Assembly (NCBI GenBank): GCA_001244265.2
Contig: CDLV01000012.1
Location: forward strand, 1,178,001 to 1,242,000
Source of the DNA: Microbotryum violaceum
Lineage: Eukaryota
Direction of reading: 5' to 3'
DNA: 64,000 nucleotides
In this document: positions 24,317 to 56,036 of the stretch, one piece after another
How the letters are laid out: every line of letters starts with the position of its first letter
How positions within the stretch are numbered: position 1 is the stretch's first letter
Position numbers and translations under genes: made by a program
Notes under the pieces: generated by a model
What the model was told of the DNA's origin: nothing
The model's input: only the letters and a program-made list of their open reading frames with translations
Databases searched by the model: none

Positions 24317-29336
<5,020 letters not shown>

Positions 29337-32961: not shown

Positions 32962-33068
32962 CTCACATCTTGTGGGCGGTTTGTGTTATCATCGTCGACC
33001 TCATCTAGTTTTTCCGTAGGCTAAACAGGGGAAACATGAACTGGAGTAATATGATGAACAGTTTTTAC
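32962..33068 (+). mobile_element. Degenerate 3'-end fragment of non-LTR family C
   Basis: Similar to 35631-35741 (gggcggtttgtgttatcatcgt...ttccgtaggc...aatatgatgaac) with many substitutions and no tail. Confidence 0.8.
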
Positions 33069-33299: not shown

Positions 33300-33370
33300 C
33301 TTCCCAGCCGGGAATCGAACCCGGGCCACACGCGTGACAGGCGTGGATTCTACCTCTATACTACTGAGAA
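33300..33370 (-). tRNA. tRNA-Asp(GTC), copy 2
   Basis: Identical to copy 1 and immediately followed by a TTTGTTTTT terminator on the minus strand. Confidence 0.95.
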
Positions 33371-33444
33371 CGTGAGTTTGAGAACGTGAGTTCGTAATTT
33401 GTTTTTGACGCTTCTCAATCCTTACAAAAAAAAAAAAAATCCTC

Positions 33445-33594
33445 CGGATGTATCGGGTTGGTCTGTTCTGCTAGTTACAACGCATCAAGCGGCGGTTGTG
33501 GTCATCATCGTGCATGCTGGGTAGCATCTCCTTTAGTTCCGTAGGGGGTTTTCTCGTCTTGCAAATTAGCGATGAGTTTCATACAAAAAAAAAA
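33445..33594 (+). mobile_element. Non-LTR family B, ~140-bp 3'-end fragment with poly(A)
   Basis: Matches 52475-52629. Flanked on both sides by (A)n-TCCTC (TSD). Confidence 0.92.
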
Positions 33595-35752
33595 TCCTCT
33601 ATTTTACGTCAATCGGTACGCCATCCCAAGATCCTGCACTTCCTTGCAGCCGACATCCCGCCGCCCGAAGTCGTCAAGAAGCTCGATGACATGCTCGTCG
33701 ATTTCGTCCGTGGGGGCAAGGGCAGGACCAGCTACGGCAGAGATATCGTGTTCACAGCCAAGCTCAAGGGGGGACTCGGGGTGATCAGGATGCAGGACGT
33801 CGTGTACGCGGTTGCGGCACGGATCTGGGACGTTCTTCTCGGCGGTTCGGGCGCGATCTGGCAAGGACTTGCGCGCGCGGCACTCCAGCGAGCTCAGTCC
33901 GACCTCGACCTGGCCACCGATCTCTGGCCACATCCATCCACTCCCATCCCCAGCGACCTCCATCCCGATGGCGAGCAGCTTTGGGGGTTCCGAAACAGCA
34001 AGACGCGCAGGTCAACCCGAGGACCTTGACCACCGCGAACCTGCTCGCGCTTCCCACCTTGCTCGGCAGCCTCCACACCCCATCAGAGGGAGACAGACCA
34101 TCGACGCGGTTCATATACCTGACTACCTTCGTCTCCAGGGCTACCCGAAGGTGGCGGATCTTTACCGGCGCGAGTTGTATGCGGGTGGGGGGTTTCACCT
34201 TTGGACGCCGCCGGCGGATGTGCTCGGCGACAACAGCGAGTACGATCGACGCGGGCTCCCGCAGCGACTGGCAATCGCGGCCTGGTACCGGTTCACTGTC
34301 GATCGACACAAGAACACGCCCTTGGCGGTGGCGGTGGCGGCAGGACGGCTCAACGTGCCTCCCCGGATCGGCACCAGCGCACCGCTCGAGGCGATTATCC
34401 CCAAGCCCGTGGCCCGCTTCGCAATGGAGCAGCGCCTTCCGGACCCGGTGCTTCCACAGCAGGCGAGCCAGTACAAGCTGCTGAACATGGCTCGACCGTA
34501 CACCATCCGTCGCATCCGCCGGGTCCTGAACGCGAAGGCCTTTACCAACACGCTCGGGCTCAAGGGACCACCGCAGCCGGACGACCTCAGGAGCTTTTGG
34601 AAGGCGGTCAACTCGAAGGCACTGACGGCGAGGGAGAGGGAAGTTTGGTTCAAGCTGATTCTCCGCTTCACCCCGACGCGCAAGCTGCAACACCAACAGA
34701 ATCACGACACTTCTCCCGCGTGCCTCGTCTGCGAAGCGCCGGTGGACGACACCGACCACTACTTTTTCGACTGCGTTGACTCTGGGAACGTTTGGATAGC
34801 GGCAAGGAGCGTGCTCTGCGACGCACTGGGGCTCGACACGATCGACAACACGCATTACACGGCTGTTCAACGCATGTTCGGACTTCCGAAGCTCAAGGCC
34901 AGTCTACGCGATCAAGAAGGAGCGGGGAGGACGATCGAAATATTCACCGGGCTGGTCTTGGAGATGATCAGCAGCGGGAGGTGGGGGATGCAGAAGTGGG
35001 GGACGAGGATGGAGGGTGTTGGGAGGAGGAGGATCATCTTGGAGGAGAGGTTGAAGCTGAGGGCGGGAGGAGCTTGGGGAGGAGAGGGCAGTAGAGGCTG
35101 GGTTCGACTTTCCCCCCACCACCACTACACACACACACACACCAAATTCTCGTGACATCATTTTCTCCTACTGTACACTAAATAGATCGCTTTCATCTTT
35201 CATTTGTTACAGGTTCATCGTTGCGGATCATGGACCATCTCGCGATTTGGCGTCGACTCGGTGTGGCTCGCGCTCTTCGGCTTCGGGGTTCTGAGTCAAG
35301 GGAGGGATCAGCGGACACAGGCAGAAAGTCGGCTTTGAGGGGCCAGGGACTGCCGATGGGGGAGGTTTTGAGGGACCTTCACCGCGTCTTGTTGTGACTG
35401 AGCAGAGACTTGGAGCGTCGAGGGTCGTGGTGGTTGCGCAGTCGTGCTCTTGTCTTCGTCTCGACCGAGTGGGAAGTGGCTGTGGGGTGGGCCTTCTGTC
35501 GTTAGTACATTTCTTTTCTTTCTTTTTCTCTTCATCTCTCTTTCTCTCTCTCATTAGTCTCCGGGGGGGGAGCAACCGCTTGGCTAGGGCATTTGAATCC
35601 GAATCTCGGATTGGTGGACTTGGCTCGTTTCTCGCACTTTTGCGGGCGGTTTGTGTTATCATCGTAGTCTTCCATCTAGTTTTTCCGTAGGCCAAAACAG
35701 GGGGAACAGGAACTGGGGGCAATATGATGAACGTTTTCTACAAAAAAAAAAA
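33595..35752 (+). mobile_element. Non-LTR family C, 5'-truncated
   Basis: ORF2 C-terminal half homologous to A and B (KILHFLAADIPP, KGGLGV, RPYTIRRIRR, REREVWFKL, CLVC...HYFFDC). Stop at 35155, 3' UTR and poly(A). Confidence 0.92.
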
Positions 35753-37508
35753 GCCCTACAGCACGAGCACGTGTGGTCGCGCGTGGGTCAGTTGCTCAAG
35801 GCGAAAGCCTTGCTGCCCAAGACCGCGTTGCGACCTGCTCGGATACCTCTCAAGGAGGCTCCCCGTCCTCGGTGCTTCAACTTCTTTGGGCTCACCCGAC
35901 CTTTTACGATTCGCAAGCTTCGTCGGCTTGTGAACGTGGTTCGGTTCCCAGGGAGGGAGGATCGTGTCAAGCGTTTCCGTGATGGGTCTTCTCAGAGCGA
36001 TAGGAAGCGCTTCTGGAGATGGCTTCATGACCGGTTCGCGTCTGCTGTGGAGCAGGACACCCACTGGCGGCTCATGTACGACGTGACGCCGACGCGCAAG
36101 AGGCAGCATACTCAGGGTCATGCCTCTTCGCCGACGTGTCTGTTCTGCGGCAAAGATGCAGCGGTCATCGAGACGGTGTCGCACTACTTCTTCGAGTGCG
36201 CGTACTCGACCAGCTTCTGGGGTGGGGTGCTTCGTATTCTGTTCGACAAGCTGGGCATCGAGGATACCGACGTCGATCCGTCGACGTTCACTCCGGAGCA
36301 GCTGACTATGGGGCTCCCCTTTTGCGGGGTCGTGGAGAACGACCTCGAAATGGATGTGGGTTCGGCTGGCTTGCGCGATCGGCTTCCAGCGGCTGCACCT
36401 GCTCCGCTGGCGCGTTCATCAGCGGTTCGAGCTGGACAAGGTCGTGGCCCCTCCCTCGCTCCCCAGTGCACTCAGAGCGTTCGAGCGAGATTTTCTCTCT
36501 CGAGCGGGTTTTGTGCCTGGGGCTCGAGATTGGGAGGTGTGATGACCGAGTTAAGTTCTTCCTTCCCATTTTCCTTCCCTCCTTTCCTCCCTTCTTTTTC
36601 GGAGGTCGACTCCTCTTTTAGAAGCTGACTGTCTTGAAACTTGTTGCGCAGTGGAAGGCTGCGCACCTCTCTCTCTCTCTCTCTCTCTACTTTGCGCAGT
36701 AGCGGTTTTTTGTTCTTGGATGGATCGGCAAGCCAGGTCGATTGTCTTTGCGTTGGAGGCTTTGTGAAGTTTTTCCCTCTCCTTTCCCCCTTTTTTCCCT
36801 TCCCTTCCTCTTCTCGTTCCTGTTGCTCGGTTGTTGACTACGCTTCAGCCACTTCTCCTTTTACTCCTAAGCCGTGTGTTGGATTCCGTTGAATGGTTCG
36901 TTCGTTCGCGTTGGTCAAGATCTACGGCATGGCTCGGGAAGGAAGGTCGCTCGTTTCTGGTCAATATCCTCGCGTCAAGGCGAGGCTCGTTTCGTTGTAC
37001 TGGATCGCTTTTCTCTCGGCCCCGATGGCTCAACAGCCAGCACTCGAGATTCAGCCAAGGGAGGACATCAGGCGCTGTCGGGGTGACGAGTAGCTGGGGC
37101 TTGGCTGCGGCCTGTTAGTCCCTGGGGACCTCTACCTCCGGCTTCGACCCCCTCCCTTGGCCCCTCGGGTGTGTTCCCCTCCTCTCTGTCTTAGTATTCC
37201 TGGTTCTCCGTATCCCCAGTCGTGACTTTCTGTATACTCTCCCCCTTCTTTCTCTAGGCGCTCTTGCCTGGTTTTCGAGTATCTTCGCTCCCGCGCTTGG
37301 GACGTGAAGCGGCAGCAGTACTCACCGCCCGTTGGAGTCCGCGTTAGGTGCTCGGCGGGTTTTGATCTGCGCAGCGCTCTTTGCGCGCAGGGGTTTGACT
37401 TTCACCCAACTGCTTGCCGTCGTTGCTTTATAACCTCCTTTAGCTCTTTTTGTAGCGGTCCCAGCCAACCCGAAGGATTGCAATTTATGAGCCCCAGTCA
37501 AAAAAAAA
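35753..37508 (+). mobile_element. Non-LTR family A, 5'-truncated copy 2
   Basis: Near-identical to 29718-31476; ends in poly(A). Confidence 0.95.
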
Positions 37509-37570
37509 CAGCCAAAACAGGGGGAACAGGAACTGGGGGCAATATGATGAACGTTTTCTACAAAAAAAAA
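37509..37570 (+). mobile_element. Non-LTR family C, ~55-bp 3'-end fragment with poly(A)
   Basis: Identical to 35691-35750. Confidence 0.9.
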
Positions 37571-37579
37571 TCAGCCAGA

Positions 37580-40500
37580 TTTTTTTTTTTTTTTTTTTTT
37601 TTTTGGTATGAAACTCATCGCTAATTTGCAAGACGAGAAAACCCCCTACGGAACTAAAGGAGATGCTACCCAGTATGCACGATGATGACCACAACCGCCG
37701 CTTGATGCGTTGTAACTAGCAGAACAGACCAACCCGATACATCCGAGTTCAAGTCCCCCCACCCACGGTTGCTCCCTCCCAGAGACGAATGAAAGGAAGA
37801 TTGAAGATTATACACAAGGAATCGGGAAAAGATGGATGAGTCGTTGGTGATGGTACATGTGTTGTACAGGCGAATCCGATTATAGTTGTACAGTTGAACC
37901 TTCTTCGATCTTTTGACTTCAGCCCCCCCTGAGACCGCCATACTCCTTGAAGCCCCTTAATTCTTTGAGACGCGTCGAACAAGGCCTCCGATGGCACAAA
38001 CATCCCGCTCAATCCAAATGATTCACGTGGTCCAAAGGGGGAATGTAACCCCCTGCGACCGCAGCAATCACATACCCCTTGTACCCGTCTGCGCTGGATC
38101 TCCACCGCGGATTCCAAACCCCTTTTCGGTTACCAAAGTCGGCCCCCCTCGCGACCGCACGACCCCAGATCACCCCCATTCCAATGACTGCAACTGCGAA
38201 ACAGGCCTACTTCGCACAAAAACACACAATCCAGAGATTTCCGGGGAAAGTCACGGAGCATGTGACAGTCCATTGGACACGCCTCGGTCGGGTGCAGCGC
38301 GGGCGGGTGGCCGTCAACACCGGCGCGCGGCTGGAGACAAGGGCGGGGTATACCTTCCGCAGGGGCCTCGCTTCCCTGCGGCGTACTCCCAATCTCGGAA
38401 CGCACACTCGAGTCCCCTTGTACGTGCAGGTGGTTCCCAATCACCGCAGATACTGGGGAAAGAAGGAGCATGAGGCCCACGACGGTGATGTCATTGGGTG
38501 GGACCTCGCTCGAGTGTGGATGTGTATGGCGGTTCGGTACCCGAGTCACCCGCCGCGCGGCCGCGACTCCGAGCGAGCAGCAAAGCAAGGAGAGGCGAGC
38601 CACGCAGGCAGTTTGTGCCGGCCTTGAACAGGAGATCACGGAGTCGCTCGACCGAAAGAGAAGACAGACCCGGCCCTTGAGAGGAGTGGAAAACTCACGG
38701 CATAGTCCAGGAGAGGGCCAAGGGGATCCGTTTTCGCTGTGTGTCATCGTGATGTGGCAGAAGCTCGAACCAAGGGCGACAATGCCCGCCGGCGCAAAGA
38801 ACCCGAGGCTCCTGGGGAGTACGGAAGCCTATGAGGAGGAATGGCAAAAAGAGCGAGAGAAAACAGGTCCAGTATTCTGGCGTGTTTGGGAGACATTTTG
38901 GAGATTGAGAAGGAGGGAAAAGGGACTTGTGATTTTTTGGGGGTTTGGTTTTTGCTTGGATAGGGAGGGAGCGCCATCTACTTCATCGCGCCAATCTGAG
39001 CTCCAACCTCTCCTTCAGTCCCGCCATCTCCTTGTCCATGCTCGACATCGCTCTGGCGTGGCGATGGAGATCCAAGCGTCGGTTGCTGAGAGTGTCGAGC
39101 GCCAGCGCAATGAAGGCGCGGATTGGACGCTTTTTCGACGTCGGAAGGCGAGCGCGCAGTCGAGGGAGGCCGTGCTCGATCTGAAGTGCCGTGTAGTCGA
39201 GGTCGAGGATCGACACGACCCCCAGCGCGTCGCAGATAATGGACCTAGCTGCTTGCCAAAATTGAGAAGAGTCAGGGCAATCATGCCAAAAGTGAGTAAA
39301 GTCATCCTCTACCCCTGCCAGGCTGCATGCCTGCACAAGGCAGCAGGCCGAGTCGCCATGCCGCTGCACAAACTGGCGCTTCCGCGTTGGCGTGAAGTGG
39401 TACGCCAGCTTGAAGTGCACCTCGCGCTCGCGGGCCGTGGCGGGCCCGGTGTGGAACCACCCCAGAAGAGTCGCCTTTCTTTGGGTGTGGCGAGTGATCC
39501 AGGGCGTTGTGTGTCGTCGAAACGTCGATGGTTGATGACGCGTCGAAGTCGCGCAATGGTGTAGGGTCTGTCCAAGCTCAACATTCTCCACTGATTAGCA
39601 AGCAAGGGGGCGGAGGGGAGGGGAAGTCTTTGATCAGGCATGCCGACCGGAGTCGCTCTGGGCAAGATGTGCTCGAGGGGACCGCCGGGCCGGGCTCCAG
39701 GTGCTCCAACGACACTAATGACGGGTGGTCGACGTGCGAGGACGGGAACAGGAGGCGGAAGCGGCGGGATGAAGCGATCGCCTGCGACCTGGATCCACGC
39801 CTGGACTTGATCGCGCTTCCATTGCCAAAGGTTGGACAGCTCCGAGCCGTCGCCTTGGGGATGCTTCTCAGGGGTCCAGGGCACCGTTGGAGCTGCGGGT
39901 ATTGAGCTCGAGCATAGATGTCAGCGATGGTGCGTTCGAAACTGAAATGCTTCGCCAAACGCTTATCCTGCTCCGAGAACGCCCGCGAGTCATGCAGACC
40001 CGGTTGGAGGGGGAAAGAGAAAGAAGATTGGAGACCGAAAGTTTGGCAGGATCGACGACGGCAGGGTAGCGTTCAGCGACCGAGAGCACCGCTCGCCAGC
40101 GGGGATGTAGCTCCCGGGGTGCGTCGGCGTTCCTCCACGTCCACAGATCCGCAGCAAAGTCAAAGGTCGGAAGCGCTCGCCGGATGGAACTCCGAGCCAG
40201 ATCGCCCCAAATCGCAGTTGACCCGCCGGCCAGCACATCCCAGATCCGTACCGAGACTGAATCCACCACATCCTGGATGCTCACGACGCTGAGACCGCCT
40301 CGCGCCCGTGCCGTGAAGACGACCGATTGCTTGTAGTCGCTGCGCCGCGGGCCTCCCTTCACAAAGTCAGCAAGCTTGCGCTCGATCGACTTGATCACGT
40401 CGGATGGCGGGATGTCGGCGGAGAGAGAGTGCAGCACCTTGGAGATGCCGTAGCAGTTAAGATAGAAAGCCCGGGTATGATGCGTCATCCATCGGTCGCG

Positions 40501-43500
40501 CACCGAGAGAATCACTCGATCAACCCTTCGCTCAAGATCATGGAATCCCAGCCTGTTGTTGCCGTCAGGCGCAAACTGGAGACCGATCCAGGGAAGAGAC
40601 TCGTCCGGTGCCACGAACGACAGTTTGGACAAGTCCGCGCGATCCCACAACGTCGCGCCCAATGGCATCACCACAGTTTTGTCGGTGTTTAGACGTCCGT
40701 TCGTCGCGAGTCGCCAATCCCGAGCTAACGCCTCGAGCGAAGCAATAGCTTCCGGCCCAGCAACAGCGACGACGGCGTCATCCGCGAACGCCAAATTGGT
40801 GATGCATCGAGTCTGCGGACGATGAGCCAGCTCCGGAAGAGTGATAGTCAGCGCAATGTTGCGTCGACTGAGAGAATCAAGGAAGGGTTGGAATACCACA
40901 TCCCAGACAGAAGAAGAGAGAGGATCGCCCTGGCCAAGACCGCACAGGAGTCGCACCGTCTCGGTGAGGAAACCGTTGACAATGTACCGCGCTGTGGACG
41001 TCTCGCCGTTGTAGAGCATCCGCAAGACGCGCTGGAAAGGTTCCGGCGCGCCGAGAGCCTCAAACACCGCAAAGACCCAGTCGTGCTCGACCATGTCGTA
41101 AGCCGAGCTCTGATCCAGGGAGAGGAGCGCTGCTGTCGGGAACTCTGCCCCACGACCCCTAATCTCATCGATCAGGAGCCGCAGATGCAAAGCCGCGTCC
41201 GCTGGTCTTCGCCCCTTGACGAACCCATGCTGTCCGGCCGGAAGAACATCGGGGAGGATCCGGTTCAGACGAGCCACGTAGACCTTGGTGAAGATCTTGT
41301 AGTCGCATTCCCGCAAGGTGATCGGACGATACGATTTGAGGTCGCACCGCGCTGCACCAGGTTTGTTGTGTTTGAACAAGAGGCGCACATTGGCCTGGCT
41401 CTGTTGTGGAGTAAGGGAGCCTCGAGTAATCAGCTCGTTGTAGGCTCGAGTCAAGAGAGGGGCCCAAAGCAGGGGGCAGGCTCGATACATCTCATAGGGG
41501 ACCCCTGAAGGACCCGGAGATCGACCTTCGTGCGTGGTTCGAATCGCTGCGAGCACCTCGGCCTCGCTGATGGGCTCGGCCAGAATGTCGACGTGCGAAT
41601 TCGAGAACCGCCGAAGGAAGCGAGCGTCGGAAAGCGGGTCGTCACAAGGTCTTGCTGATCTGATGGGTCCCAAGAGCTCATCCCGCATCGTCACGACCTG
41701 TTCCGGATCCTTCGCTTCGACAAGGTAGTGCTGCTGGAAATGAGAATGGGTGTGTTCGAGCGCGCGCTCAATGTCAGTGGTGAGCTCGCCATCAGCGAGC
41801 CGGATACTCTGAAACTTCACATCGCGGGACCGAGCAGCCAGTTTGGCATGTACCGGACGACTGAGACGTTCCTCGGATGCAATCTCGGGAACGTGCGCCC
41901 TGATCCGGGACTGCCTTGCTCGCTCGTTCACAAGCTTGGAGAGAGCGTCGTGGGTGTTCGTCCAGTCGATAATATCGAAGGGGCTCAGCACCCGACGAGA
42001 CTCAATGTCCTGCAGTCGAGATACCAGCATCATTTCGAGGGCGTTGCGCTCCCGAAACAGACGCCGAGACAGCTCGAGAGCTTGGACCCGAGACTCCGAG
42101 AGTACGCGCTGAAGGTCCGCGACCGGATCCCCAGACGGTGCCTGCTCAAGGAGACGAGTGACGAACTCCTTAAACTCGGCGTGTCTGAAGGTCGACGAGT
42201 TGATGCGGGTCAGAAAATGAGCCGCCTGGGGAAGGCAGAGCTCCTCTTCGACCTCGGCACCACTTGCGCGCAGCCTAAATGTGACCGTAACCGGTCGATG
42301 ATCCGACATGGATCGAGAGATATTGTACAGAGTAGAAGCAGAAACGACCCGTCGCTCGTGTCGCCGCTGCACCAGAACAAAGTCGATGCGCGCGCGCGAA
42401 ATGAGCTGGCCGTCCTTGCTGAGATGTGGGCGCGTGGTCGCCGGCGACAGTGGGTGCATGAGCCGAATGGCATCCGTGTACGCCCCGTCGAGCCGAGACA
42501 TAAGCACAGGCCAGTGGTGGGTGTTCGGGCGGTCCACCTGTTGCGCTCGATCCACCGCGGGAATAGGGCAGTCGTTGAGATCTCCCGCGATGAACCGAAT
42601 ATGAGAGGAGACGGTCGCCCGAAAGTGAAGGGAGGTGAAGAAGAGGAGGCGCTCGGCGGGTTGAACCGGAGCGTAGATATTGTTGAGTTCGACGACGTCC
42701 GTCGAACCCCGCACATCGAAGGTGGTCACGAGTAAGCGCCCGCCAAGAGACTGACACGTGCGACGATGACCACCGAGAAGAGGAGAAGAGCTTGGAATCA
42801 AAGTGAGGCAGTGTTGAGAAAAGTAAGCCTCGCCCTGGTGGGACTGGGCCTACTCGTGGCGTATGTGAGATTGTCGTGCTTTAGGAACATTATGTTCCTG
42901 GAGAAGGATAGCAGAAGGGGGAGGTGTGAGCGAAGTGAGATACGAAAGAAGCAGACGACGTCGTTCAGGGGTATTGAAGCCCCTGTTGACGTTCCAGGTC
43001 ATGATGATGAACTCAATCATTACGATCGCGCCTTCGTTGCAGCAGCAGCTCCCTTGATGGACAACATAGGTCCGAATGTGGGTGACGGGAGAGGGTCCGC
43101 AGCAGTCGATTCGTTCCAGTCCGATGTGCGCGCAACGCTGGTGAGACGCTGGATACGCTCGGACCGGCGAAGACCCTGGGAAGTTCCTTCTTCCACCTCC
43201 TGCTTGGGCTCGGGCTCGGGATCACACACTGGACCTGGAGACGGCGAAGGCATCCAACCGGTCACAGACGGGGTGCGGTCCAACTCGGTGATCTCATCGT
43301 ACAGACCGGCATCCTGTTTGCGCTCGCGATCCGACACACGATTCATCCAGTCGTCAGGAAGGCCGTCCATATCAAGCTGATGGTGACTGGCCGATCGGAA
43401 CCGCGTCAGCTCAGGGGTCGTCGAGACAACCTCAGGCATAGACCCCGTCTCGGCCGACTGCGATTCCCCTTCTTCCGCGTCACTCGTCTCCGTGTGTTCC

Positions 43501-45138
43501 TCCTGGTTCCCCTCCGCTCCGCGGTCCTGCAGATCCGACAGATCCGAAGGCTCCAACGGCGGCACCTCCTGCTGTGGTTCCAGCTGTGCCTCGACTACGC
43601 TCATCGCGTCCTTGTCGTCCGCGAGAGCCTGAGCGGGCTCCCCCTGCGCCTCTTCGGCCACGTCGCCGGCCAGACTTGCGAATGGGTTTGCGGCGACGAT
43701 GAAACCGCGAAGGGCGGATGCTGTGGGTGTAGAGCTTTGTGAACGAGCAGGGTAGACTCGTGGTGAGTTGTTAGTGTCCCTTGTGGGAGATGCGTTCTTC
43801 TTTGAACGCTTGGACGCGACAGGGGACATTGGGGGAGAGGGAGAGGCTACATCACCTCTGCGTTGTTTTTGGGGGTCGAGGTTTGCTCGATGCTGCTTTG
43901 GGGCTCGGCCTGGGGCCTTTGGTTGTTGTTATTTTTCTGGGCGGCCTGCTGACGCTGGACCGGCTTTTGAACGCAGTTGTCGGAGTGGCCTACAAAACCG
44001 CATCGGCGGCAGGAGGCTTCGGCCTCGTAGTCGTGGCGAAGGGGCGTGAGAGTTGCGAGTCGTCCTCGAAGGTCGATCCTCGTCGGTAGAACCTGTCGAA
44101 GTTGAGCACCGTTGTTTTTGAACAGATCGTCGTCGTCGAACTGGACGATGGCCGCGTAGTTTCCTCGAGCAACGAGATACGAGCCTTGAACGACTGTTAG
44201 AGGCTGCTGGAGTTGGAGCAAGTCGCACTTGTGGCCGTCCCCGGTAAGCTTGGCGACGACGCCTTGCAGTTTGCTCCAGAGGTCGTCATTCGTGTATTCA
44301 GCCTCAGGACTGATGATGAAACGCAGTTCGACGACGTTCTTGACGAACGCCAAGCGCTTGCGGACTTGGGCAAAGGAGCGTTTCCACTCGATCTTGGTCG
44401 CCGCGTCGTGGACTTGGTCGAGCGCCGCTGCGCTAGCGCAGCGCACCACGAACTTGAACCGGGTGTTGCCGTTTTGGATGATCGACTCCGGTGCGACTCT
44501 ATGGATGACTGGAGCGTATTTCTGGAGCTCGGGGGGAGGACAACTCCTGCGGGCAGGTTAAAACACAACGACGTGTCGGGCGACAGGGTACGGAGCACCT
44601 TCGAGTACAACTCGGACTTCTCGCGTTCAGTGGCCACACCGGTGTGTTCGAACGTGACTTCAAGAACGGCACCAGACGTGTCGGCGATTGGTTTCGTTGC
44701 ATTGAGTGCGCTAAAGCGCAGGGAGGTGGCCCGGTCCTTGCCGAAGCCGAGTGCTTCTTTGAGCACAAGGATGCGGGTGCCCTGGCGTGTGCCATCTTCG
44801 ACACTGATCATCTTCAGGATCCTCGCGACATCCTCCTTCCTCTTCTTCTCTTCATCACGCTTTTCCTGGTACAGCGCTAGGCCGGGGTTCCCTGGTCCCT
44901 CGGCGGCATCGGCCTCCGCCCCCGCGTCACCACGTAGTTGCCCCGTCGCTGCCGGCTCCGGAGGGCCGCGGCCCGGATCAGGCGGTGCCTGGTCGGACAT
45001 TGGGTCGATAGCTGATGTAGCGGTTGATGTATTCGATGTATTGACGTTTGCCGAGGTAGGGTAGTGCGATTGAGATGAAAGATGAAAGATGAAAGATGAA
45101 AGATGAAAGATGAAAGATGAAGATGAAAGATGAAAGAT
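37580..45138 (-). mobile_element. Full-length non-LTR family B element (left arm of palindrome)
   Basis: On the minus strand: 5' (CATCTTT)n, ORF1 45000-43020, ORF2 43020-38983 (APE endonuclease, RT, Cys/His motif), 1.4-kb 3' UTR, A25 tail. Confidence 0.95.
45074..45138. repeat. (GATGAAA)n microsatellite forming the palindrome spacer and the 5' end of the left element
   Basis: About 9 units, seen directly. Confidence 0.95.
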
Positions 45139-45218
45139 ATGTATCTCAATCGCACTACCCTACCTTGGCAAACGTCAATACATCGAATACATCAACCGCT
45201 ACATCAGCTATCGACCCA

Positions 45219-47199
45219 ATGTCCGACCAGGCACCGCCTGATCCGGGCCGCGGCCCTCCGGAGCCGGCAGCGACGGGGCAACTACGTGGTGACGCGGGGG
45301 CGGAGGCCGATGCCGCCGAGGGACCAGGGAACCCCGGCCTAGCGCTGTACCAGGAAAAGCGTGATGAAGAGAAGAAGAGGAAGGAGGATGTCGCGAGGAT
45401 CCTGAAGATGATCAGTGTCGAAGATGGCACACGCCAGGGCACCCGCATCCTTGTGCTCAAAGAAGCACTCGGCTTCGGCAAGGACCGGGCCACCTCCCTG
45501 CGCTTTAGCGCACTCAATGCAACGAAACCAATCGCCGACACGTCTGGTGCCGTTCTTGAAGTCACGTTCGAACACACCGGTGTGGCCACTGAACGCGAGA
45601 AGTCCGAGTTGTACTCGAAGGTGCTCCGTACCCTGTCGCCCGACACGTCGTTGTGTTTTAACCTGCCCGCAGGAGTTGTCCTCCCCCCGAGCTCCAGAAA
45701 TACGCTCCAGTCATCCATAGAGTCGCACCGGAGTCGATCATCCAAAACGGCAACACCCGGTTCAAGTTCGTGGTGCGCTGCGCTAGCGCAGCGGCGCTCG
45801 ACCAAGTCCACGACGCGGCGACCAAGATCGAGTGGAAACGCTCCTTTGCCCAAGTCCGCAAGCGCTTGGCGTTCGTCAAGAACGTCGTCGAACTGCGTTT
45901 CATCATCAGTCCTGAGGCTGAATACACGAATGACGACCTCTGGAGCAAACTGCAAGGCGTCGTCGCCAAGCTTACCGGGGACGGCCACAAGTGCGACTTG
46001 CTCCAACTCCAGCAGCCTCTAACAGTCGTTCAAGGCTCGTATCTCGTTGCTCGAGGAAACTACGCGGCCATCGTCCAGTTCGACGACGACGATCTGTTCA
46101 AAAACAACGGTGCTCAACTTCGACAGGTTCTACCGACGAGGATCGACCTTCGAGGACGACTCGCAACTCTCACGCCCCTTCGCCACGACTACGAGGCCGA
46201 AGCCTCCTGCCGCCGATGCGGTTTTGTAGGCCACTCCGACAACTGCGTTCAAAAGCCGGTCCAGCGTCAGCAGGCCGCCCAGAAAAATAACAACAACCAA
46301 AGGCCCCAGGCCGAGCCCCAAAGCAGCATCGAGCAAACCTCGACCCCCAAAAACAACGCAGAGGTGATGTAGCCTCTCCCTCTCCCCCAATGTCCCCTGT
46401 CGCGTCCAAGCGTTCAAAGAAGAACGCATCTCCCACAAGGGACACTAACAACTCACCACGAGTCTACCCTGCTCGTTCACAAAGCTCTACACCCACAGCA
46501 TCCGCCCTTCGCGGTTTCATCGTCGCCGCAAACCCATTCGCAAGTCTGGCCGGCGACGTGGCCGAAGAGGCGCAGGGGGAGCCCGCTCAGGCTCTCGCGG
46601 ACGACAAGGACGCGATGAGCGTAGTCGAGGCACAGCTGGAACCACAGCAGGAGGTGCCGCCGTTGGAGCCTTCGGATCTGTCGGATCTGCAGGACCGCGG
46701 AGCGGAGGGGAACCAGGAGGAACACACGGAGACGAGTGACGCGGAAGAAGGGGAATCGCAGTCGGCCGAGACGGGGTCTATGCCTGAGGTTGTCTCGACG
46801 ACCCCTGAGCTGACGCGGTTCCGATCGGCCAGTCACCATCAGCTTGATATGGACGGCCTTCCTGACGACTGGATGAATCGTGTGTCGGATCGCGAGCGCA
46901 AACAGGATGCCGGTCTGTACGATGAGATCACCGAGTTGGACCGCACCCCGTCTGTGACCGGTTGGATGCCTTCGCCGTCTCCAGGTCCAGTGTGTGATCC
47001 CGAGCCCGAGCCCAAGCAGGAGGTGGAAGAAGGAACTTCCCAGGGTCTTCGCCGGTCCGAGCGTATCCAGCGTCTCACCAGCGTTGCGCGCACATCGGAC
47101 TGGAACGAATCGACTGCTGCGGACCCTCTCCCGTCACCCACATTCGGACCTATGTTGTCCATCAAGGGAGCTGCTGCTGCAACGAAGGCGCGATCGTAA
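45219..47199 (+). CDS. Family B ORF1 (gag-like, CCHC-type knuckle); two 1-bp homopolymer frameshifts
   Basis: CRRCGFVGHSDNC. Homologous to family D ORF1 (LRFSALNA..LEVT..H..EKSEL...LSP). Frames join if one C is added near 45685 and one A near 46350. Confidence 0.8.
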
Positions 47200-50100
47200 T
47201 GATTGAGTTCATCATCATGACCTGGAACGTCAACAGGGGCTTCAATACCCCTGAACGACGTCGTCTGCTTCTTTCGTATCTCACTTCGCTCACACCTCCC
47301 CCTTCTGCTATCCTTCTCCAGGAACATAATGTTCCTAAAGCACGACAATCTCACATACGCCACGAGTAGGCCCAGTCCCACCAGGGCGAGGCTTACTTTT
47401 CTCAACACTGCCTCACTTTGATTCCAAGCTCTTCTCCTCTTCTCGGTGGTCATCGTCGCACGTGTCAGTCTCTTGGCGGGCGCTTACTCGTGACCACCTT
47501 CGATGTGCGGGGTTCGACGGACGTCGTCGAACTCAACAATATCTACGCTCCGGTTCAACCCGCCGAGCGCCTCCTCTTCTTCACCTCCCTTCACTTTCGG
47601 GCGACCGTCTCCTCTCATATTCGGTTCATCGCGGGAGATCTCAACGACTGCCCTATTCCCGCGGTGGATCGAGCGCAACAGGTGGACCGCCCGAACACCC
47701 ACCACTGGCCTGTGCTTATGTCTCGGCTCGACGGGGCGTACACGGATGCCATTCGGCTCATGCACCCACTGTCGCCGGCGACCACGCGCCCACATCTCAG
47801 CAAGGACGGCCAGCTCATTTCGCGCGCGCGCATCGACTTTGTTCTGGTGCAGCGGCGACACGAGCGACGGGTCGTTTCTGCTTCTACTCTGTACAATATC
47901 TCTCGATCCATGTCGGATCATCGACCGGTTACGGTCACATTTAGGCTGCGCGCAAGTGGTGCCGAGGTCGAAGAGGAGCTCTGCCTTCCCCAGGCGGCTC
48001 ATTTTCTGACCCGCATCAACTCGTCGACCTTCAGACACGCCGAGTTTAAGGAGTTCGTCACTCGTCTCCTTGAGCAGGCACCGTCTGGGGATCCGGTCGC
48101 GGACCTTCAGCGCGTACTCTCGGAGTCTCGGGTCCAAGCTCTCGAGCTGTCTCGGCGTCTGTTTCGGGAGCGCAACGCCCTCGAAATGATGCTGGTATCT
48201 CGACTGCAGGACATTGAGTCTCGTCGGGTGCTGAGCCCCTTCGATATTATCGACTGGACGAACACCCACGACGCTCTCTCCAAGCTTGTGAACGAGCGAG
48301 CAAGGCAGTCCCGGATCAGGGCGCACGTTCCCGAGATTGCATCCGAGGAACGTCTCAGTCGTCCGGTACATGCCAAACTGGCTGCTCGGTCCCGCGATGT
48401 GAAGTTTCAGAGTATCCGGCTCGCTGATGGCGAGCTCACCACTGACATTGAGCGCGCGCTCGAACACACCCATTCTCATTTCCAGCAGCACTACCTTGTC
48501 GAAGCGAAGGATCCGGAACAGGTCGTGACGATGCGGGATGAGCTCTTGGGACCCATCAGATCAGCAAGACCTTGTGACGACCCGCTTTCCGACGCTCGCT
48601 TCCTTCGGCGGTTCTCGAATTCGCACGTCGACATTCTGGCCGAGCCCATCAGCGAGGCCGAGGTGCTCGCAGCGATTCGAACCACGCACGAAGGTCGATC
48701 TCCGGGTCCTTCAGGGGTCCCCTATGAGATGTATCGAGCCTGCCCCCTGCTTTGGGCCCCTCTCTTGACTCGAGCCTACAACGAGCTGATTACTCGAGGC
48801 TCCCTTACTCCACAACAGAGCCAGGCCAATGTGCGCCTCTTGTTCAAACACAACAAACCTGGTGCAGCGCGGTGCGACCTCAAATCGTATCGTCCGATCA
48901 CCTTGCGGGAATGCGACTACAAGATCTTCACCAAGGTCTACGTGGCTCGTCTGAACCGGATCCTCCCCGATGTTCTTCCGGCCGGACAGCATGGGTTCGT
49001 CAAGGGGCGAAGACCAGCGGACGCGGCTTTGCATCTGCGGCTCCTGATCGATGAGATTAGGGGTCGTGGGCAGAGTTCCCGACAGCAGCGCTCCTCTCCC
49101 TGGATCAGAGCTCGGCTTACGACATGGTCGAGCACGACTGGGTCTTTGCGGTGTTTGAGGCTCTCGGCGCGCCGGAACCTTTCCAGCGCGTCTTGCGGAT
49201 GCTCTACAACGGCGAGACGTCCACAGCGCGGTACATTGTCAACGGTTTCCTCACCGAGACGGTGCGACTCCTGTGCGGTCTTGGCCAGGGCGATCCTCTC
49301 TCTTCTTCTGTCTGGGATGTGGTATTCCAACCCTTCCTTGATTCTCTCAGTCGACGCAACATTGCGCTGACTATCACTCTTCCGGAGCTGGCTCATCGTC
49401 CGCAGACTCGATGCATCACCAATTTGGCGTTCGCGGATGACGCCGTCGTCGCTGTTGCTGGGCCGGAAGCTATTGCTTCGCTCGAGGCGTTAGCTCGGGA
49501 TTGGCGACTCGCGACGAACGGACGTCTAAACACCGACAAAACTGTGGTGATGCCATTGGGCGCGACGTTGTGGGATCGCGCGGACTTGTCCAAACTGTCG
49601 TTCGTGGCACCGGACGAGTCTCTTCCCTGGATCGGTCTCCAGTTTGCGCCTGACGGCAACAACAGGCTGGGATTCCATGATCTTGAGCGAAGGGTTGATC
49701 GAGTGATTCTCTCGGTGCGCGACCGATGGATGACGCATCATACCCGGGCTTTCTATCTTAACTGCTACGGCATCTCCAAGGTGCTGCACTCTCTCTCCGC
49801 CGACATCCCGCCATCCGACGTGATCAAGTCGATCGAGCGCAAGCTTGCTGACTTTGTGAAGGGAGGCCCGCGGCGCAGCGACTACAAGCAATCGGTCGTC
49901 TTCACGGCACGGGCGCGAGGCGGTCTCAGCGTCGTGAGCATCCAGGATGTGGTGGATTCAGTCTCGGTACGGATCTGGGATGTGCTGGCCGGCGGGTCAA
50001 CTGCGATTTGGGGCGATCTGGCTCGGAGTTCCATCCGGCGAGCGCTTCCGACCTTTGACTTTGCTGCGGATCTGTGGACGTGGAGGAACGCCGACGCACC

Positions 50101-51237
50101 CCGGGAGCTACATCCCCGCTGGCGAGCGGTGCTCTCGGTCGCTGAACGCTACCCTGCCGTCGTCGATCCTGCCAAACTTTCGGTCTCCAATCTTCTTTCT
50201 CTTTCCCCCTCCAACCGGGTCTGCATGACTCGCGGGCGTTCTCGGAGCAGGATAAGCGTTTGGCGAAGCATTTCAGTTTCGAACGCACCATCGCTGACAT
50301 CTATGCTCGAGCTCAATACCCCGCAGCTCCAACGGTGCCCTGGACCCCTGAGAAGCATCCCCAAGGCGACGGCTCGGAGCTGTCCAACCTTTGGCAATGG
50401 AAGCGCGATCAAGTCCAGGCGTGGATCCAGGTCGCAGGCGATCGCTTCATCCCGCCGCTTCCGCCTCCTGTTCCCGTCCTCGCACGTCGACCACCCGTCA
50501 TTAGTGTCGTTGGAGCACCTGGAGCCCGGCCCGGCGGTCCCCTCGAGCACATCTTGCCCAGAGCGACTCCGGTCGGCATGCCTGATCAAAGACTTCCCCT
50601 CCCCTCCGCCCCCTTGCTTGCTAATCAGTGGAGAATGTTGAGCTTGGACAGACCCTACACCATTGCGCGACTTCGACGCGTCATCAACCATCGACGTTTC
50701 GACGACACACAACGCCCTGGATCACTCGCCACACCCAAAGAAAGGCGACTCTTCTGGGGGTGGTTCCACACCGGGCCCGCCACGGCCCGCGAGCGCGAGG
50801 TGCACTTCAAGCTGGCGTACCACTTCACGCCAACGCGGAAGCGCCAGTTTGTGCAGCGGCATGGCGACTCGGCCTGCTGCCTTGTGCAGGCATGCAGCCT
50901 GGCAGGGGTAGAGGATGACTTTACTCACTTTTGGCATGATTGCCCTGACTCTTCTCAATTTTGGCAAGCAGCTAGGTCCATTATCTGCGACGCGCTGGGG
51001 GTCGTGTCGATCCTCGACCTCGACTACACGGCACTTCAGATCGAGCACGGCCTCCCTCGACTGCGCGCTCGCCTTCCGACGTCGAAAAAGCGTCCAATCC
51101 GCGCCTTCATTGCGCTGGCGCTCGACACTCTCAGCAACCGACGCTTGGATCTCCATCGCCACGCCAGAGCGATGTCGAGCATGGACAAGGAGATGGCGGG
51201 ACTGAAGGAGAGGTTGGAGCTCAGATTGGCGCGATGA
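47199..51237 (+). CDS. Family B ORF2 (APE endonuclease + reverse transcriptase), disrupted
   Basis: MIEFIIMTWNVNRG, LLQE, NIYAP, AGDLN, ARIDF, SDHRPV; SPGPSG, YRPITL, QGDPLS, FADD. In-frame TAG at 47367-47369 and homopolymer frameshifts near 49070 and 50205. Confidence 0.9.
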
Positions 51238-52629
51238 AGTAGATGGCGCTCCCTCCCTATCCAAGCAAAAACCAAACCCCCAAAAAATCACAAGTCCCTT
51301 TTCCCTCCTTCTCAATCTCCAAAATGTCTCCCAAACACGCCAGAATACTGGACCTGTTTTCTCTCGCTCTTTTTGCCATTCCTCCTCATAGGCTTCCGTA
51401 CTCCCCAGGAGCCTCGGGTTCTTTGCGCCGGCGGGCATTGTCGCCCTTGGTTCGAGCTTCTGCCACATCACGATGACACACAGCGAAAACGGATCCCCTT
51501 GGCCCTCTCCTGGACTATGCCGTGAGTTTTCCACTCCTCTCAAGGGCCGGGTCTGTCTTCTCTTTCGGTCGAGCGACTCCGTGATCTCCTGTTCAAGGCC
51601 GGCACAAACTGCCTGCGTGGCTCGCCTCTCCTTGCTTTGCTGCTCGCTCGGAGTCGCGGCCGCGCGGCGGGTGACTCGGGTACCGAACCGCCATACACAT
51701 CCACACTCGAGCGAGGTCCCACCCAATGACATCACCGTCGTGGGCCTCATGCTCCTTCTTTCCCCAGTATCTGCGGTGATTGGGAACCACCTGCACGTAC
51801 AAGGGGACTCGAGTGTGCGTTCCGAGATTGGGAGTACGCCGCAGGGAAGCGAGGCCCCTGCGGAAGGTATACCCCGCCCTTGTCTCCAGCCGCGCGCCGG
51901 TGTTGACGGCCACCCGCCCGCGCTGCACCCGACCGAGGCGTGTCCAATGGACTGTCACATGCTCCGTGACTTTCCCCGGAAATCTCTGGATTGTGTGTTT
52001 TTGTGCGAAGTAGGCCTGTTTCGCAGTTGCAGTCATTGGAATGGGGGTGATCTGGGGTCGTGCGGTCGCGAGGGGGGCCGACTTTGGTAACCGAAAAGGG
52101 GTTTGGAATCCGCGGTGGAGATCCAGCGCAGACGGGTACAAGGGGTATGTGATTGCTGCGGTCGCAGGGGGTTACATTCCCCCTTTGGACCACGTGAATC
52201 ATTTGGATTGAGCGGGATGTTTGTGCCATCGGAGGCCTTGTTCGACGCGTCTCAAAGAATTAAGGGGCTTCAAGGAGTATGGCGGTCTCAGGGGGGGCTG
52301 AAGTCAAAAGATCGAAGAAGGTTCAACTGTACAACTATAATCGGATTCGCCTGTACAACACATGTACCATCACCAACGACTCATCCATCTTTTCCCGATT
52401 CCTTGTGTATAATCTTCAATCTTCCTTTCATTCGTCTCTGGGAGGGAGCAACCGTGGGTGGGGGGACTTGAACTCGGATGTATCGGGTTGGTCTGTTCTG
52501 CTAGTTACAACGCATCAAGCGGCGGTTGTGGTCATCATCGTGCATACTGGGTAGCATCTCCTTTAGTTCCGTAGGGGGTTTTCTCGTCTTGCAAATTAGC
52601 GATGAGTTTCATACAAAAAAAAAAAAAAA

Positions 52630-53093
52630 TCGGCCAAGGGAGGACATCAGGCGCTGTCGGGGTGACGAGTAGCTGGGGCTTGGCTGCGGCCTGTTAGTCC
52701 CTGGGGACCTCTACCTCCGGCTTCGACCCCCTCCCTTGGCCCCTCGGGTGTGTTCCCCTCCTCTCTGTCTTAGTATTCCTGGTTCTCCGTATCCCCAGTC
52801 GTGACTTTCTGTATACTCTCCCCCTTCTTTCTCTAGGCGCTCTTGCCTGGTTTTCGAGTATCTTTGCTCCCGCTCTTGGGACGTGAAGCGGCAGCAGTAC
52901 TCACCGCCCGTTGGAGTCCGCGTTAGGTGCTCGGCGGGTTTTGATCTGCGCAGCGCTCTTTGCGCGCAGGGGTTTGACTTTCACCCAACTGCTTGCCGTC
53001 GTTGCTTTATAACCTCCTTTAGCTCTTTTTGTAGCGGTCCCAGCCAACCCGAAGGATTGCAATTTATGAGCCCCAGTCAAAAACAAAAAAAAA
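52630..53093 (+). mobile_element. Non-LTR family A, 3'-UTR fragment with poly(A)
   Basis: Matches 31018-31476. Confidence 0.93.
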
Positions 53094-55990
53094 CACCTCA
53101 CCTCACTTCACTTCACTTCACTTCACTTCACTTCACTTCACTTCACTTCACTTCACTTCGCCCTACCGCAGTCTTCGATACTCGAGTTAACAAGTGATAC
53201 ACCGACAAGATGTCTACAGGAGACCCTGGGTCCCCACCGCCGGCACCGCCACCACCGGTGTCCGCCACCAGTGTCCAGCCACCCGGCGACCAGATCCCGA
53301 TAAGCTCGAAGAAGACGCAAGTCACGGGCCCTGCCACCGCCGCACCCAACTATGCCGCCGCACCCAACTATGCCGCCGCTGCGAGTCAGGCGACTCAGTC
53401 ACCTGAACAACAGCAACAACAACAACAGCGTGCCAAGGCTCTGGGCAGCCTCCTACAAGCCATGGGTGCTGTACCCGGAAACCGCATGGATCGTTGGGTC
53501 CAGGCCATCTACTTCGCCTAACTCTACCCCGTCGCCACCGCCACATCGCTGAAATTCTCGGCCTTGAACGCGAACCGGTCTGTCGAGAACATCTTTGATT
53601 ACGCCCTTGAAGTGACTCTGTCTCACCAGAGCGCCTCGCGAGCGTCTCATGCCGACAAGACCGATCTCGTGGCCTGCGTCACGAGGCTGTTATCGCCGAT
53701 CTCTCCTATCTGCTTTGAGCCTGGAGTTCCTCTGCCGGACCACCTTGCAGCCTATCGACCACAGATCCTAGGCGTACAACATTCATCAATCCTGCGTAAT
53801 GGGGCGGCTCACCATCGCGTTACCGTTGGGTTCGTCACCGGCGAGGCACGTGACGCTGCGCTTACGACGCCCCCTGCTCTCACTTGGCGATCGGCGAAGG
53901 CCCGCTTCGCGAAATCTCACAGGTTCCACCATAACATCGTCGAGCTTCGAATCAACGTCGGTGTTCAAGGAGTGCCTTCCATGGATGCCATCATCAAATC
54001 GTTCCAATTACTAGTGCAGGACTTGTCAGGCAAGGGACATTCGTGCCAACTTGTGCAGGTTCTGCGCATTATCAGCGTGGACAACGCCTCGGCCTTTGCC
54101 CACGTTGCCGGAGACTACTCAGCTTTCCTACACTTCGATGACGACTCCCTGTCCAAATTTACGGACGGGCAAGTGCCAGCAAGCTCAGCAACTTCAAATC
54201 TTTCCTCTACCCCCTTGGAGCTTTTCGGGATCGGTCGATCACCCCAGATCTCGGGACCTGGCGTCTCAGCGATTCGCAGTTTCGCTTATTGCGGGCCTCC
54301 AAAACGTTCGCGAACTCCTTTTTGCCGACGACGCTTGCTGCGCACTCCACAACCTCTCGGACCTCGACCACCTCAATCGGGCGATCGAGCTTTACGAACG
54401 GGCAAGTGCCAGCAAGCTCAGCAACGCCAAATCTTTCCTCTACCCCCTTGGAGCTTTTCGGGATCGGTCGATCACCCCAGATCTCGGGACCTGGCGTCTC
54501 AGCGATTCGCAGTTTCGCTACCTTGGTATTCAGGTCGGGGTGGAGATCGCTGAGGATGCGGGCTGGGAAGATGTCAAGGCCTTGACCATCGCTCGGATAC
54601 GCTCGATTCCGATGTACGATCTCCCATATGCAGCCAAGTGTTCGATCATCAACATCTACTGCTACACAAAGATCTTGTACTACAGCCGATTCCTTCCCGC
54701 CCCCAAGAGCGTTGTCAAGGAGATCGAGGAGGCCGCCATGCTCGCCATTCACGGTCGAGCTTCGGATGGTACTCAGCGACGTCCGAAGGTCTCCCGGTCG
54801 CGCCTCTGCACCCCTCTCAATCACGACGGCTTCGGTTTGATTGATCTGCCTCGGCGTCTAGCAATCGATCACGCGAAGTGGGTCTTCCAGCTCCGGGCCC
54901 CGGACGGCTGCTTCACACGCCACCTCTTCGACATCCGCATCCGCCTCCAGGCACCAAACGAACCAACCCCTTTCACCTTGTCCAGACCGGCCCCCAACCA
55001 GCATCGTTGCCCTTGGATTTGGATCTGGTGGGCATACTTTTGCCATCCTCCCCAAAGTGGGACCATGCGATGAGAAAAACGACAAAACTTCTTCCTGCTC
55101 GTTGGGTCCGATACTTCGAAGCCTGGGCGTTGGTGACCACGCTCAACCCCCCGGAACTCTCCAAGAGCCAGAACCTCGAGCAATGGGCGACGCACGTACT
55201 CTATTTCCCAGCGGGCCACGGAATACAACTCTCGGTAAACCCGACGCTTTTTCGAGGGCCCGATGGCAAGGTGATGACCCCGTCTTCGTTTGTGAACGCG
55301 TCCAAACGCCACCAAGTCTTCATCTTCCCCCTTATCTTCCCAAGGGACACCAGAAGGTATTCGATCTGCCTGAGCAACGCTGGAACGCTTGGTGGAAGGC
55401 TTTGCGCAAGGTTCGCCGGGTTCACTCGGACGCCGAGGATACCGGCCACCTTCTCTCCCTGGAGTCCCTCCATCCGGGAAGCCAAGTCGCCTCCCCAACC
55501 AGCCCACATCCCAACAATCGATCTACCTCCTGTGTGATGTGCCTCTCGAAGCACCTGAGTGCCTGGTTCACCTTGCGGTCGGCTGCCCATTTGCCCGGCG
55601 CCTCTGGTCTGCTCTGTCCCCGACCCCCACCCAGTCTTTGTGGACTTTGTATGCCCGGTCGTGTCTTGCTCGGAACGTCGACTTGTCGAACTACGAGTCC
55701 TCTTCTTTCACTCGATCTGGAAGCTCTGTCGTCGTCGTCGATTCTCGTCGGATCTTTTGGAACCGATCACCGAAACGGAGTTCGAGGGGCTTCGAGCCTC
55801 TATCCAGGAGCCCAAGGGTCGCCTAGTGTCTCTGTAAGACACCAAAGGGGGTTTTAGTGGGTATGGTTGATCCTGGTTCAGGGTCAATGAGTCCTACACT
55901 ACTGGCTTCTGCCAGTGTGCGTAACAGCATTCCCTCCGACTTTTCCGAAGATTTCTAGGTATTAATATAATTATGCTGTTAATGAAGTCC

Positions 55991-56034
<44 letters not shown>
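53094..56034 (+). mobile_element. Non-LTR family D, 5'-intact but internally deleted
   Basis: 5' (CACCT)2(CACTT)11. ORF1 from ATG 53210 is homologous to B ORF1, then jumps at ~54160 into late RT (LFADD, FRYLGI, DGFGLID). CVMC...HLAVGC motif, stop at 55837, A42 tail. Confidence 0.9.

Positions 56035-56036
<2 letters not shown>

Follow-up and report, generated by a model that had tools for sequence, protein, structure and literature searches.

LINE arrays upstream of two tRNA-Asp genes

Poly(A) retroelements arranged head-to-tail in two arrays, each array situated upstream of a tRNA-Asp(GTC) gene, were identified by self-comparison, reading of the sequence and tblastn in a 64,000-nt stretch of the Microbotryum violaceum genome (contig CDLV01000012.1, positions 1,178,001 to 1,242,000 of assembly GCA_001244265.2; hereafter the window). 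Judged by their sequence, the units of these arrays are 5'-truncated or full-length long interspersed nuclear elements (LINEs) of the apurinic/apyrimidinic endonuclease (APE) type, L1-like in character and falling into four families, A, B, C and D. Short motifs that recur at the junctions between units, each made up of a run of A's and a few further letters, were probably left as target-site duplications (TSDs) through target-primed reverse transcription (TPRT) in successive events, in which elements of these families would have been directed to a position upstream of the tRNA gene. The wider proposition that L1-like families of Microbotryum home ~55 nt upstream of tRNA genes, that their arrays are ordered in time and that a head-to-head pair of family-B copies represents a natural, full-length case of dual priming is offered more tentatively, and we hold it, taken as a whole, to be somewhat short of probable.

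The array upstream of tRNA-Asp gene 2 (array 2) consists of the following features.

33300..33370, minus strand: tRNA-Asp(GTC) gene 2 (ARAGORN; Rfam RF00005, 52.9 bits)
33371..33425, no strand: unique DNA upstream of the tRNA gene, 55 nt, ending in ...CCTTAC (sequence reading, self-BLAST)
33426..33444, plus strand: left TSD copy of E1, A14 + TCCTC
33445..33594, plus strand: E1, the final 140 nt of family B with an A10 tail (self-comparison)
33585..33601, plus strand: right TSD copy of E1, A10 + TCCTC (the TSD proper, 33585-33599), then TA
33602..35752, plus strand: E2, a 5'-truncated family-C LINE comprising the C-terminal part of open reading frame (ORF) 2 with zf-RVT, the 3' untranslated region and an A11 tail
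35753..37508, plus strand: E3, a 5'-truncated family-A LINE with an A9 tail
37500..37514, plus strand: T1, A9 + CAGCCA, left TSD copy of E4
37511..37570, plus strand: E4, the final 51 nt of family C with an A9 tail
37562..37579, plus strand: T2, A9 + TCAGCCA (37562-37577), then the filler GA
37580..45076, minus strand: E5 (B-rev), a full-length family-B LINE with a T25 tail toward the tRNA side
45077..45142, no strand: spacer of (GAAAGAT)n, 66 nt, between the B 5' ends of E5 and E6
45143..52629, plus strand: E6 (B-fwd), a full-length family-B LINE with an A15 tail
52615..52636, plus strand: T3, A15 + TCGGCCA, right TSD copy of the E5/E6 pair (the B/B pair), its seven letters being the start of E7
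52630..53093, plus strand: E7, the final 455 nt of family A with an A5CA9 tail
53094..56034, plus strand: D, the most distal unit, a poly(A) element of a fourth family that opens with (CACTT)n, includes an ORF1-like part and has an A42 tail

The features of the second array (array 1), which belongs to tRNA-Asp gene 1, are as follows.

22892..22962, minus strand: tRNA-Asp(GTC) gene 1 (ARAGORN, Rfam)
23020..23070, plus strand: TCATAC(A)12, TCATAC(A)10 and TCATAC(A)11 in tandem, 57 nt upstream of the tRNA gene
23071-24316 and 29342-31476, plus strand: the proximal LINE, a 5'-truncated copy of family A, split in two
24317-29336: a copia-type long terminal repeat (LTR) retrotransposon interrupting that family-A LINE
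31480-32961, plus strand: distal unit, a diverged 3' part of family B that ends in TTATAC
32970-33068, plus strand: distal unit, a diverged 3' fragment of family C (distal units together 31477..33068)

Gene 2 has its 5' end at 33370 and a T5 terminator directly downstream on the minus strand, and the arrays begin 55 nt (gene 2) and 57 nt (gene 1) from the 5' end of the respective tRNA. In both of them every unit points its own 5' end toward the tRNA gene, except for B-rev. By self-BLAST, homology between the two tRNA-Asp loci extends over 74 nt only and their flanks are unrelated. LINE-coding pieces detected in the window by tblastn all lie within 23075-54163, inside the arrays, with the one exception of two low-identity (28–34 %) matches of a single query inside the copia element of array 1. 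An Rfam scan of the window returned no gene transcribed by RNA polymerase III (Pol III) besides the two tRNA-Asp genes.

Assignment of the units to LINE families

Several traits of the units are L1-like, namely poly(A) tails, variable 5' truncation and TSDs of variable length that start with A's. Among the window copies, Pfam domains were found in ORF2 of family B (RVT_1) and in copies of families A and C (zf-RVT), whilst relatives P0005 and P0008, 54–91 % identical to the window copies, carry Exo_endo_phos, RVT_1 and zf-RVT together. The closest solved structure is that of human LINE-1 ORF2p (E-value 1.4e-22), with the match running across endonuclease and reverse transcriptase. A Pfam search of the frames of D and of the ORF1 region of B gave no family. 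L1-clade elements have been described in M. violaceum (PMC3956500, which cites Hood 2005); for the M. lychnidis-dioicae genome, the sole mention in the parts of PMC4469406 drawn on here is that LINEs make up 7 % of transposable-element sequence.

Identity to family mates is high throughout array 2: the B portion of E1 (33445-33584) is 99.3 % identical to the corresponding part of B-fwd (52475-52624), E3 is 99.6 % identical to the family-A copy of array 1 at 29718-31474 and E4 (37511-37570) is 100 % identical to 35691-35750. E2 is 90.7 % identical to relative P0008 (tblastn), and D is 84 % identical over 53432-54163 to residues 11–235 of relative P0028. The distal B piece of array 1 is 91–97 % identical to family B and the distal C piece 86 % identical to its own family. 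The large ORF at 39868-42849, part of a repeated element, matches proteins annotated in Microbotryum silenes-dioicae, M. saponariae and M. intermedium at 84–90 % identity, which places the window in an anther-smut fungus. When an ORF2 alignment was used to scan metagenomes, five loci with 23–39 % identity and no tRNA gene (0) were returned, a result with no bearing on the present question.

Element D contains 129-bp direct repeats at 54158 and 54391, and beyond it, at 56035-56275, there are three or four AAAATGTCA...GCGCCTC repeats that end in A17. Both of the 5'-complete elements, B and D, bear a short microsatellite directly at the 5' end (45077-45142 and 53100-53160).

Target-site duplications at the junctions

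During TPRT the bottom strand is nicked at or within a run of T's, the TSD starts with A's that merge into the new tail, and the top strand is nicked downstream (PMC2912911). In the arrays, the first nick would have been made in the T-run opposite an A-run, where the poly(A) tail would prime, and the second 5–7 nt past that run; with nicks in these positions the duplicated piece would consist of the A's and 5–7 nt, and the letters would be the 5' junction of the unit adjoining the run. It had been suggested from an earlier, sequence-only reading of array 2 that each insertion duplicated the A-run together with 5–7 nt of its distal neighbour's 5' junction, and this describes E1, E4 and the B/B pair, whilst E2, E3, E7 and D show no non-A part. 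The same reading had E1 flanked on both sides by (A)n-TCCTC, as is indeed the case (A14 copy at 33426-33444, A10 copy at 33585-33599). TCCTC is not family-B sequence, as native B has GAACT there, nor is it family-C sequence, for contigs from three sequencing runs (X1, X12 and X18) carry ...CACCCGTGCC ahead of 33602. Given this native family-C sequence, TCCTCTA (33595-33601) belongs to the 5' junction of E2 as filler, of which E1 duplicated five letters, and the family-C unit begins only at 33602.

The second motif, proposed as (A)n-(T)CAGCCA or TCGGCCA, is present behind A-runs that start at 37500, 37562 and 52615, although the left copy has no T. TCGGCCA at 52630 had rightly been recognized as native to family A: the remaining two family-A copies (31018 and 37051) read GATTCAGCCAAGG at the homologous place, and TCGGCCA is thus where a 5'-truncated A copy begins, altered by a single A>G change. 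The duplicated junction TCAGCCA accordingly corresponds to the first 7 nt of E7, in which the A>G change came later. T2 has a double role: it closes E4 as the right TSD copy and opens the B/B pair as the left one. T1 and E4 overlap in GCCA, the opening letters of E4 and native family-C sequence, and this sharing fits a microhomology-guided joining of the 5' end. The second nick lies 5 nt past the A-run for E1, 7 nt for both the B/B pair and E4, and 6 nt for the TCATAC units of array 1; with A-runs of 9–15, the TSDs are roughly 14–22 nt long.

To compare these matches with chance, the letters following each of the 16 A-runs of at least 7 in the window were compared between pairs of runs, with 200,000 random pairs of window positions as the random expectation. 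Sharing was seen for four of 15 adjacent pairs and for none of 105 non-adjacent pairs (0/105), so that the TSD-like matches are more frequent than chance, as the earlier reading presupposed. The adjacent pairs concerned were TCATAC at 23038/23054, TCCTC (5/5), CAGCCA (6/6 with a one-base offset) and TCAGCCA/TCGGCCA (6/7); amongst random pairs, the three match criteria were reached at frequencies of 0.0013, 0.0010 and 0.0015. That the insertions were separate and sequential events is supported by these junction sequences.

TCATAC is also the final 6 nt of young family B, and the tandem at 23020-23070 may reflect TPRT events at one spot that aborted or were resolved early. The identical 6-nt truncation in all three TCATAC units appears best explained by early resolution, in which a new B cDNA would anneal immediately to a top-strand overhang already ending in (A)nTCATAC.

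For E4 there is a different account, in which no insertion took place and 37511-37570 is the right copy of an overlong TSD made when E3 entered the 3' end of E2, the likeness of CAGCCA at 37509 to TCAGCCA being an accident. In agreement with this, E3 is bounded exactly by 35691-35750 and 37511-37570, which match each other at 100 % identity, and very long L1 TSDs are known from cell assays (PMC2912911). It requires, however, a first nick at ...GTAG|GCCA, where there is no T-run; it leaves the letters CA unexplained; and it demands a six-letter coincidence after the E3 tail, which we estimate at ~1 in 4096 (a comparable offset match had a frequency of ~0.001 in the random test). On these three grounds, nick site, unexplained CA and coincidence, E4 as one half of a long E3 TSD was rejected, and we consider it extremely improbable.

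Order of insertion

Read as TSDs, the duplicated letters show that E1 is younger than E2, and that the B/B pair and E4 are both younger than E7. The complete succession previously drawn from them (D, A, B/B, C, A, C, B) cannot be sustained, as the TSDs yield three relations only: E2 preceded E1, and E7 preceded both the B/B pair and E4. Nor, contrary to what had been argued, does the relay of motifs speak for a fixed position rather than for insertion into any poly(A) tail. Entry at the tRNA-proximal end and entry at an internal tail would each duplicate an A-run and the start of the distal neighbour, and an identical string results, such that the relay does not separate the two models. E4 and the B/B pair provide an example: insertion of the B/B pair followed by E4 on its proximal side gives the same string as insertion of E4 followed by the B/B pair at the E4 tail. 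Under both models, then, all that a TSD conveys is that a unit arrived later than its neighbour on the distal side.

An inverted pair of full-length family-B elements

The B/B pair (37580-52629) is the most unusual feature of the locus, being a one-step, 15-kb inverted pair if it is correctly understood here. It forms a near-perfect palindrome of 15 kb from two full-length family-B LINEs of 7.5 kb each, arranged head-to-head, with arms (37590-45076 and 45143-52629) that are 99.93 % identical over 7489 nt. The aligned arm bodies differ by one substitution and three one-base homopolymer indels. The tails are dissimilar, T25 in E5 and A15 in E6, and in E5 a single additional base separates the body from its tail. 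Both arms stop exactly at their tails, which face outward, and the flanks are the direct repeats A9-TCAGCCA and A15-TCGGCCA. A single TSD thereby encloses the pair, with none around E5 or E6 individually, which indicates that the pair entered as one event.

Dual priming, a process in which two mRNAs are used and one is primed from each nick end (PMC2837659), appears to fit these features best. On this account the bottom-strand end would have primed one B RNA, whilst the top-strand end (...TCAGCCA plus the filler GA) would have used the poly(A) of a second B RNA for priming, and priming from the second nick would account for the orientation of B-rev. The observed arrangement, with opposite cDNAs that each have their own outward tail and with one TSD around both, is the one that dual priming leaves. 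Classical twin priming (bioRxiv 10.1101/2024.08.27.596794) does not fit, as one RNA cannot give two full-length copies. Dual priming was postulated by Meyer et al. on short primate loci, without validation there (PMC2837659, section 11), and its proposers likewise found no inner microhomology at their loci (PMC2837659). Between the two 5' ends of the B/B pair lies the (GAAAGAT)n spacer; in run X18, a contig leaves the B 5' end and covers 24 nt of this same repeat, so that the inverted copy may have the repeat as its native 5' end.

The repeats and the palindrome might instead have been produced at the DNA level, by unequal crossing-over or fold-back duplication, or by mis-assembly of long reads. 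In keeping with such an origin, three of the four differences between the arm bodies are homopolymer indels, and homopolymer differences from the window in all four runs compared point to small assembly errors. The arms, however, end at tails that differ (T25 vs A15, with the extra base) and never run into the flanks; the flanks are direct and not inverted repeats; the non-A letters of the TSDs are not homopolymers; and the sequence on each side of the palindrome is unique and differs from that on the other. Fold-back duplication was rejected as a source of the palindrome because its arms end at the tails and its flanks are direct repeats, and we judge DNA-level events or mis-assembly as a whole to be very improbable.

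Sampled words of the window were present at 62–68 % in 20 of 24 sequencing runs. Four of these runs (X1, X16, X12 and X18) were compared with the window over 32900-45110, all of them as short-read contigs that stop at repeats; X18 has a depth of 0 over 32900-33307. Compared with the window, all four are longer by one homopolymer base at each of 33624, 33963, 34077, 35075, 37922, 38142 and 39896. The window thus probably contains small long-read assembly errors, and the lengths of its A-runs may be imprecise. Such errors would also account for some of the broken LINE reading frames and, in view of the extra base at 39896 in 4/4 runs, some of the indels between E5 and E6 may have the same origin. 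Among the contigs listed, 33407-33445 and 37571-37614 are spanned by none, nor does any continue across the palindrome centre beyond 45100. Dating of the units by their listed differences to the contigs was rejected, as that listing is incomplete and the contigs represent collapsed multi-copy sequence.

A proposed fixed position upstream of the tRNA gene

Elements of the four families would, in the mechanism we propose, be directed ~55 nt upstream of tRNA genes and oriented 5' end tRNA-ward, in the manner of the TRE5 elements of Dictyostelium and probably by way of Pol III factors bound at the tRNA gene. Each insertion would rebuild an A-run at the target spot, later insertions could consequently land there again, and older units would be pushed outward. 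The array would then be roughly chronological, an order that the TSDs do not prove. We find a fixed tRNA-upstream position plausible and the better model, on grounds other than the relay. Two otherwise unrelated tRNA-Asp loci share both the start of the array (55 and 57 nt) and its orientation. In array 1 the diverged units are distal, whilst the proximal family-A copy is 99.6 % identical to E3. A fragment of young B, which ends in TCATAC where old B ends in TTATAC, occupies the most proximal place in each array. Finally, no LINE has inserted into the long A-runs situated outside the arrays that do not form the tail of a unit (A63 at 22798, A17 at 56259 and A9 at 2435).

The competing model has poly(A) targeting without a tRNA ruler. 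Here the endonuclease prefers long A/T runs and any tail in an array is a target, such that the link with the tRNA gene would stem from a founding insertion or a tolerated landing zone and the order of the array would not be chronological. A precedent exists in Zorro3, a fungal L1-clade LINE of Candida albicans that integrates at poly-A tracts (PMC3956500). Contigs from other loci show a tail followed directly by a truncated LINE (X16, 35750>37461 and 37507>37243; X18, 37508>35263), the model predicts the same relay, and array 2 shows no age gradient. On the other hand, a founder effect would require the coincidence of 55/57 nt and orientation to have occurred twice, the A63, A17 and A9 runs outside the arrays have no LINE insertion, and the diverged units of array 1 are distal. 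Taking both sides together, we regard poly(A) targeting as unlikely, though the most serious of the alternatives.

Several observations weigh against TPRT events directed by the tRNA gene, or against parts of that interpretation. The TSD relay is equally expected from insertion into internal poly(A) tails, and LINE tail-to-head joins occur at other loci, just as poly(A) targeting predicts. All units of array 2 are at least 99 % identical to their family mates and there is no age gradient. The window offers two tRNA genes only, both of one isoacceptor and both with arrays (2/2). A non-A part of the TSD is present in only three of the seven array 2 events (E1, E4 and the B/B pair), with 4/7 (E2, E3, E7 and D) having none. 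T1 is a weaker TSD than the other two because its left CAGCCA has no T and because GCCA, four of its six letters, is also native family-C sequence. For the B/B pair there is no clear microhomology at the inner junction, where the 66-nt (GAAAGAT)n spacer plus ATGT separates the 5' ends, and as the contigs break at 37571-37614, the palindrome and its junctions are known from the assembly alone.

Relation to known elements

The nearest parallels to tRNA-directed insertion are TRE5-A of Dictyostelium discoideum and NLTR-B of Polysphondylium, which share with the Microbotryum units an ORF2 of endonuclease (APE), reverse transcriptase and zinc finger, an oligo(A) tail and frequent 5' truncation. TRE5-A inserts ~50 bp upstream of a tRNA gene, its 5' end turned toward the tRNA 5' end (PMC3159450), and integration distances of 40–54 bp for TRE5 and 39–64 bp for NLTR-B upstream of tRNA genes have been given (PMC5911963). 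The likeness may extend to a fixed distance of a few tens of nucleotides, 55–57 nt in the Microbotryum arrays (n = 2), and does extend to the fixed orientation, which all units but B-rev display. The Microbotryum case differs in its basidiomycete host, in its two tRNA-Asp genes and in having four families co-resident at the site, and it is likened to the amoebal elements by geometry and architecture. In the table of one review, only dictyostelid non-LTR elements are given as tRNA-targeted, with no fungal one (PMC5911963), and our literature search turned up no report of tRNA-linked LINEs in Microbotryum or other fungi. L1-like LINEs that home upstream of tRNA genes are thus known from social amoebae, and a fungal case would be new. 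The literature passages on TRE elements include no explicit statement that older copies are displaced outward, and the parallel on this point is of our own drawing.

Zorro3 resembles the Microbotryum elements as a fungal L1-clade LINE with A tracts on both sides (PMC3956500). It is described without a TSD beyond the A tract and without a link to tRNA genes, whereas in Microbotryum E1, E4 and the B/B pair duplicate 5–7 non-A letters, array 1 repeats TCATAC and the arrays adjoin tRNA genes. A pattern of A tracts with no further TSD is thus not what array 2 as a whole displays, even though its four other events show A's only. Products of twin or dual priming by human L1 are similar to the B/B pair in their inverted segment, their poly(T) on the 5' side and the one TSD around the whole; they differ in that the primate cases are short and truncated, with two mechanisms that were inseparable for their authors, whereas the Microbotryum B copies are full length and joined through a 66-nt microsatellite.

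The TSD relays by themselves are ordinary scars of TPRT. Should homing upstream of tRNA genes prove genome-wide, safe-harbour use of Pol III genes by L1-like LINEs would be known from a second and distant lineage of eukaryotes, with implications for the question of whether the trait is convergent and for the way in which the TFIIIB/TFIIIC complex is read by ORF1 or ORF2. If the arrays grow at one end, they would constitute an internal clock of LINE family succession in a model genus for sex-chromosome-like degeneration and the accumulation of transposable elements. The B/B pair, if rightly interpreted, would support dual priming, so far merely postulated, and would mean that retrotransposition can make long perfect palindromes, i.e. 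fragile sites.

Other features of the window

The copia element within array 1 (24317-29336) encodes gag, integrase and RVT_2 and has an open frame of 1153 aa; its LTRs are 280 bp long and 99.3 % identical, and its TSD is CGAGG. To the left of tRNA-Asp gene 1 lies an ordinary ALAD gene. The A63 homopolymer (22798-22860) is located 31 nt past the 3' end of tRNA-Asp gene 1 and reads as T63 on the tRNA strand, with no T-run terminator nearer to the gene. Candidate origins of this run are an expanded terminator and a tail-only insertion.

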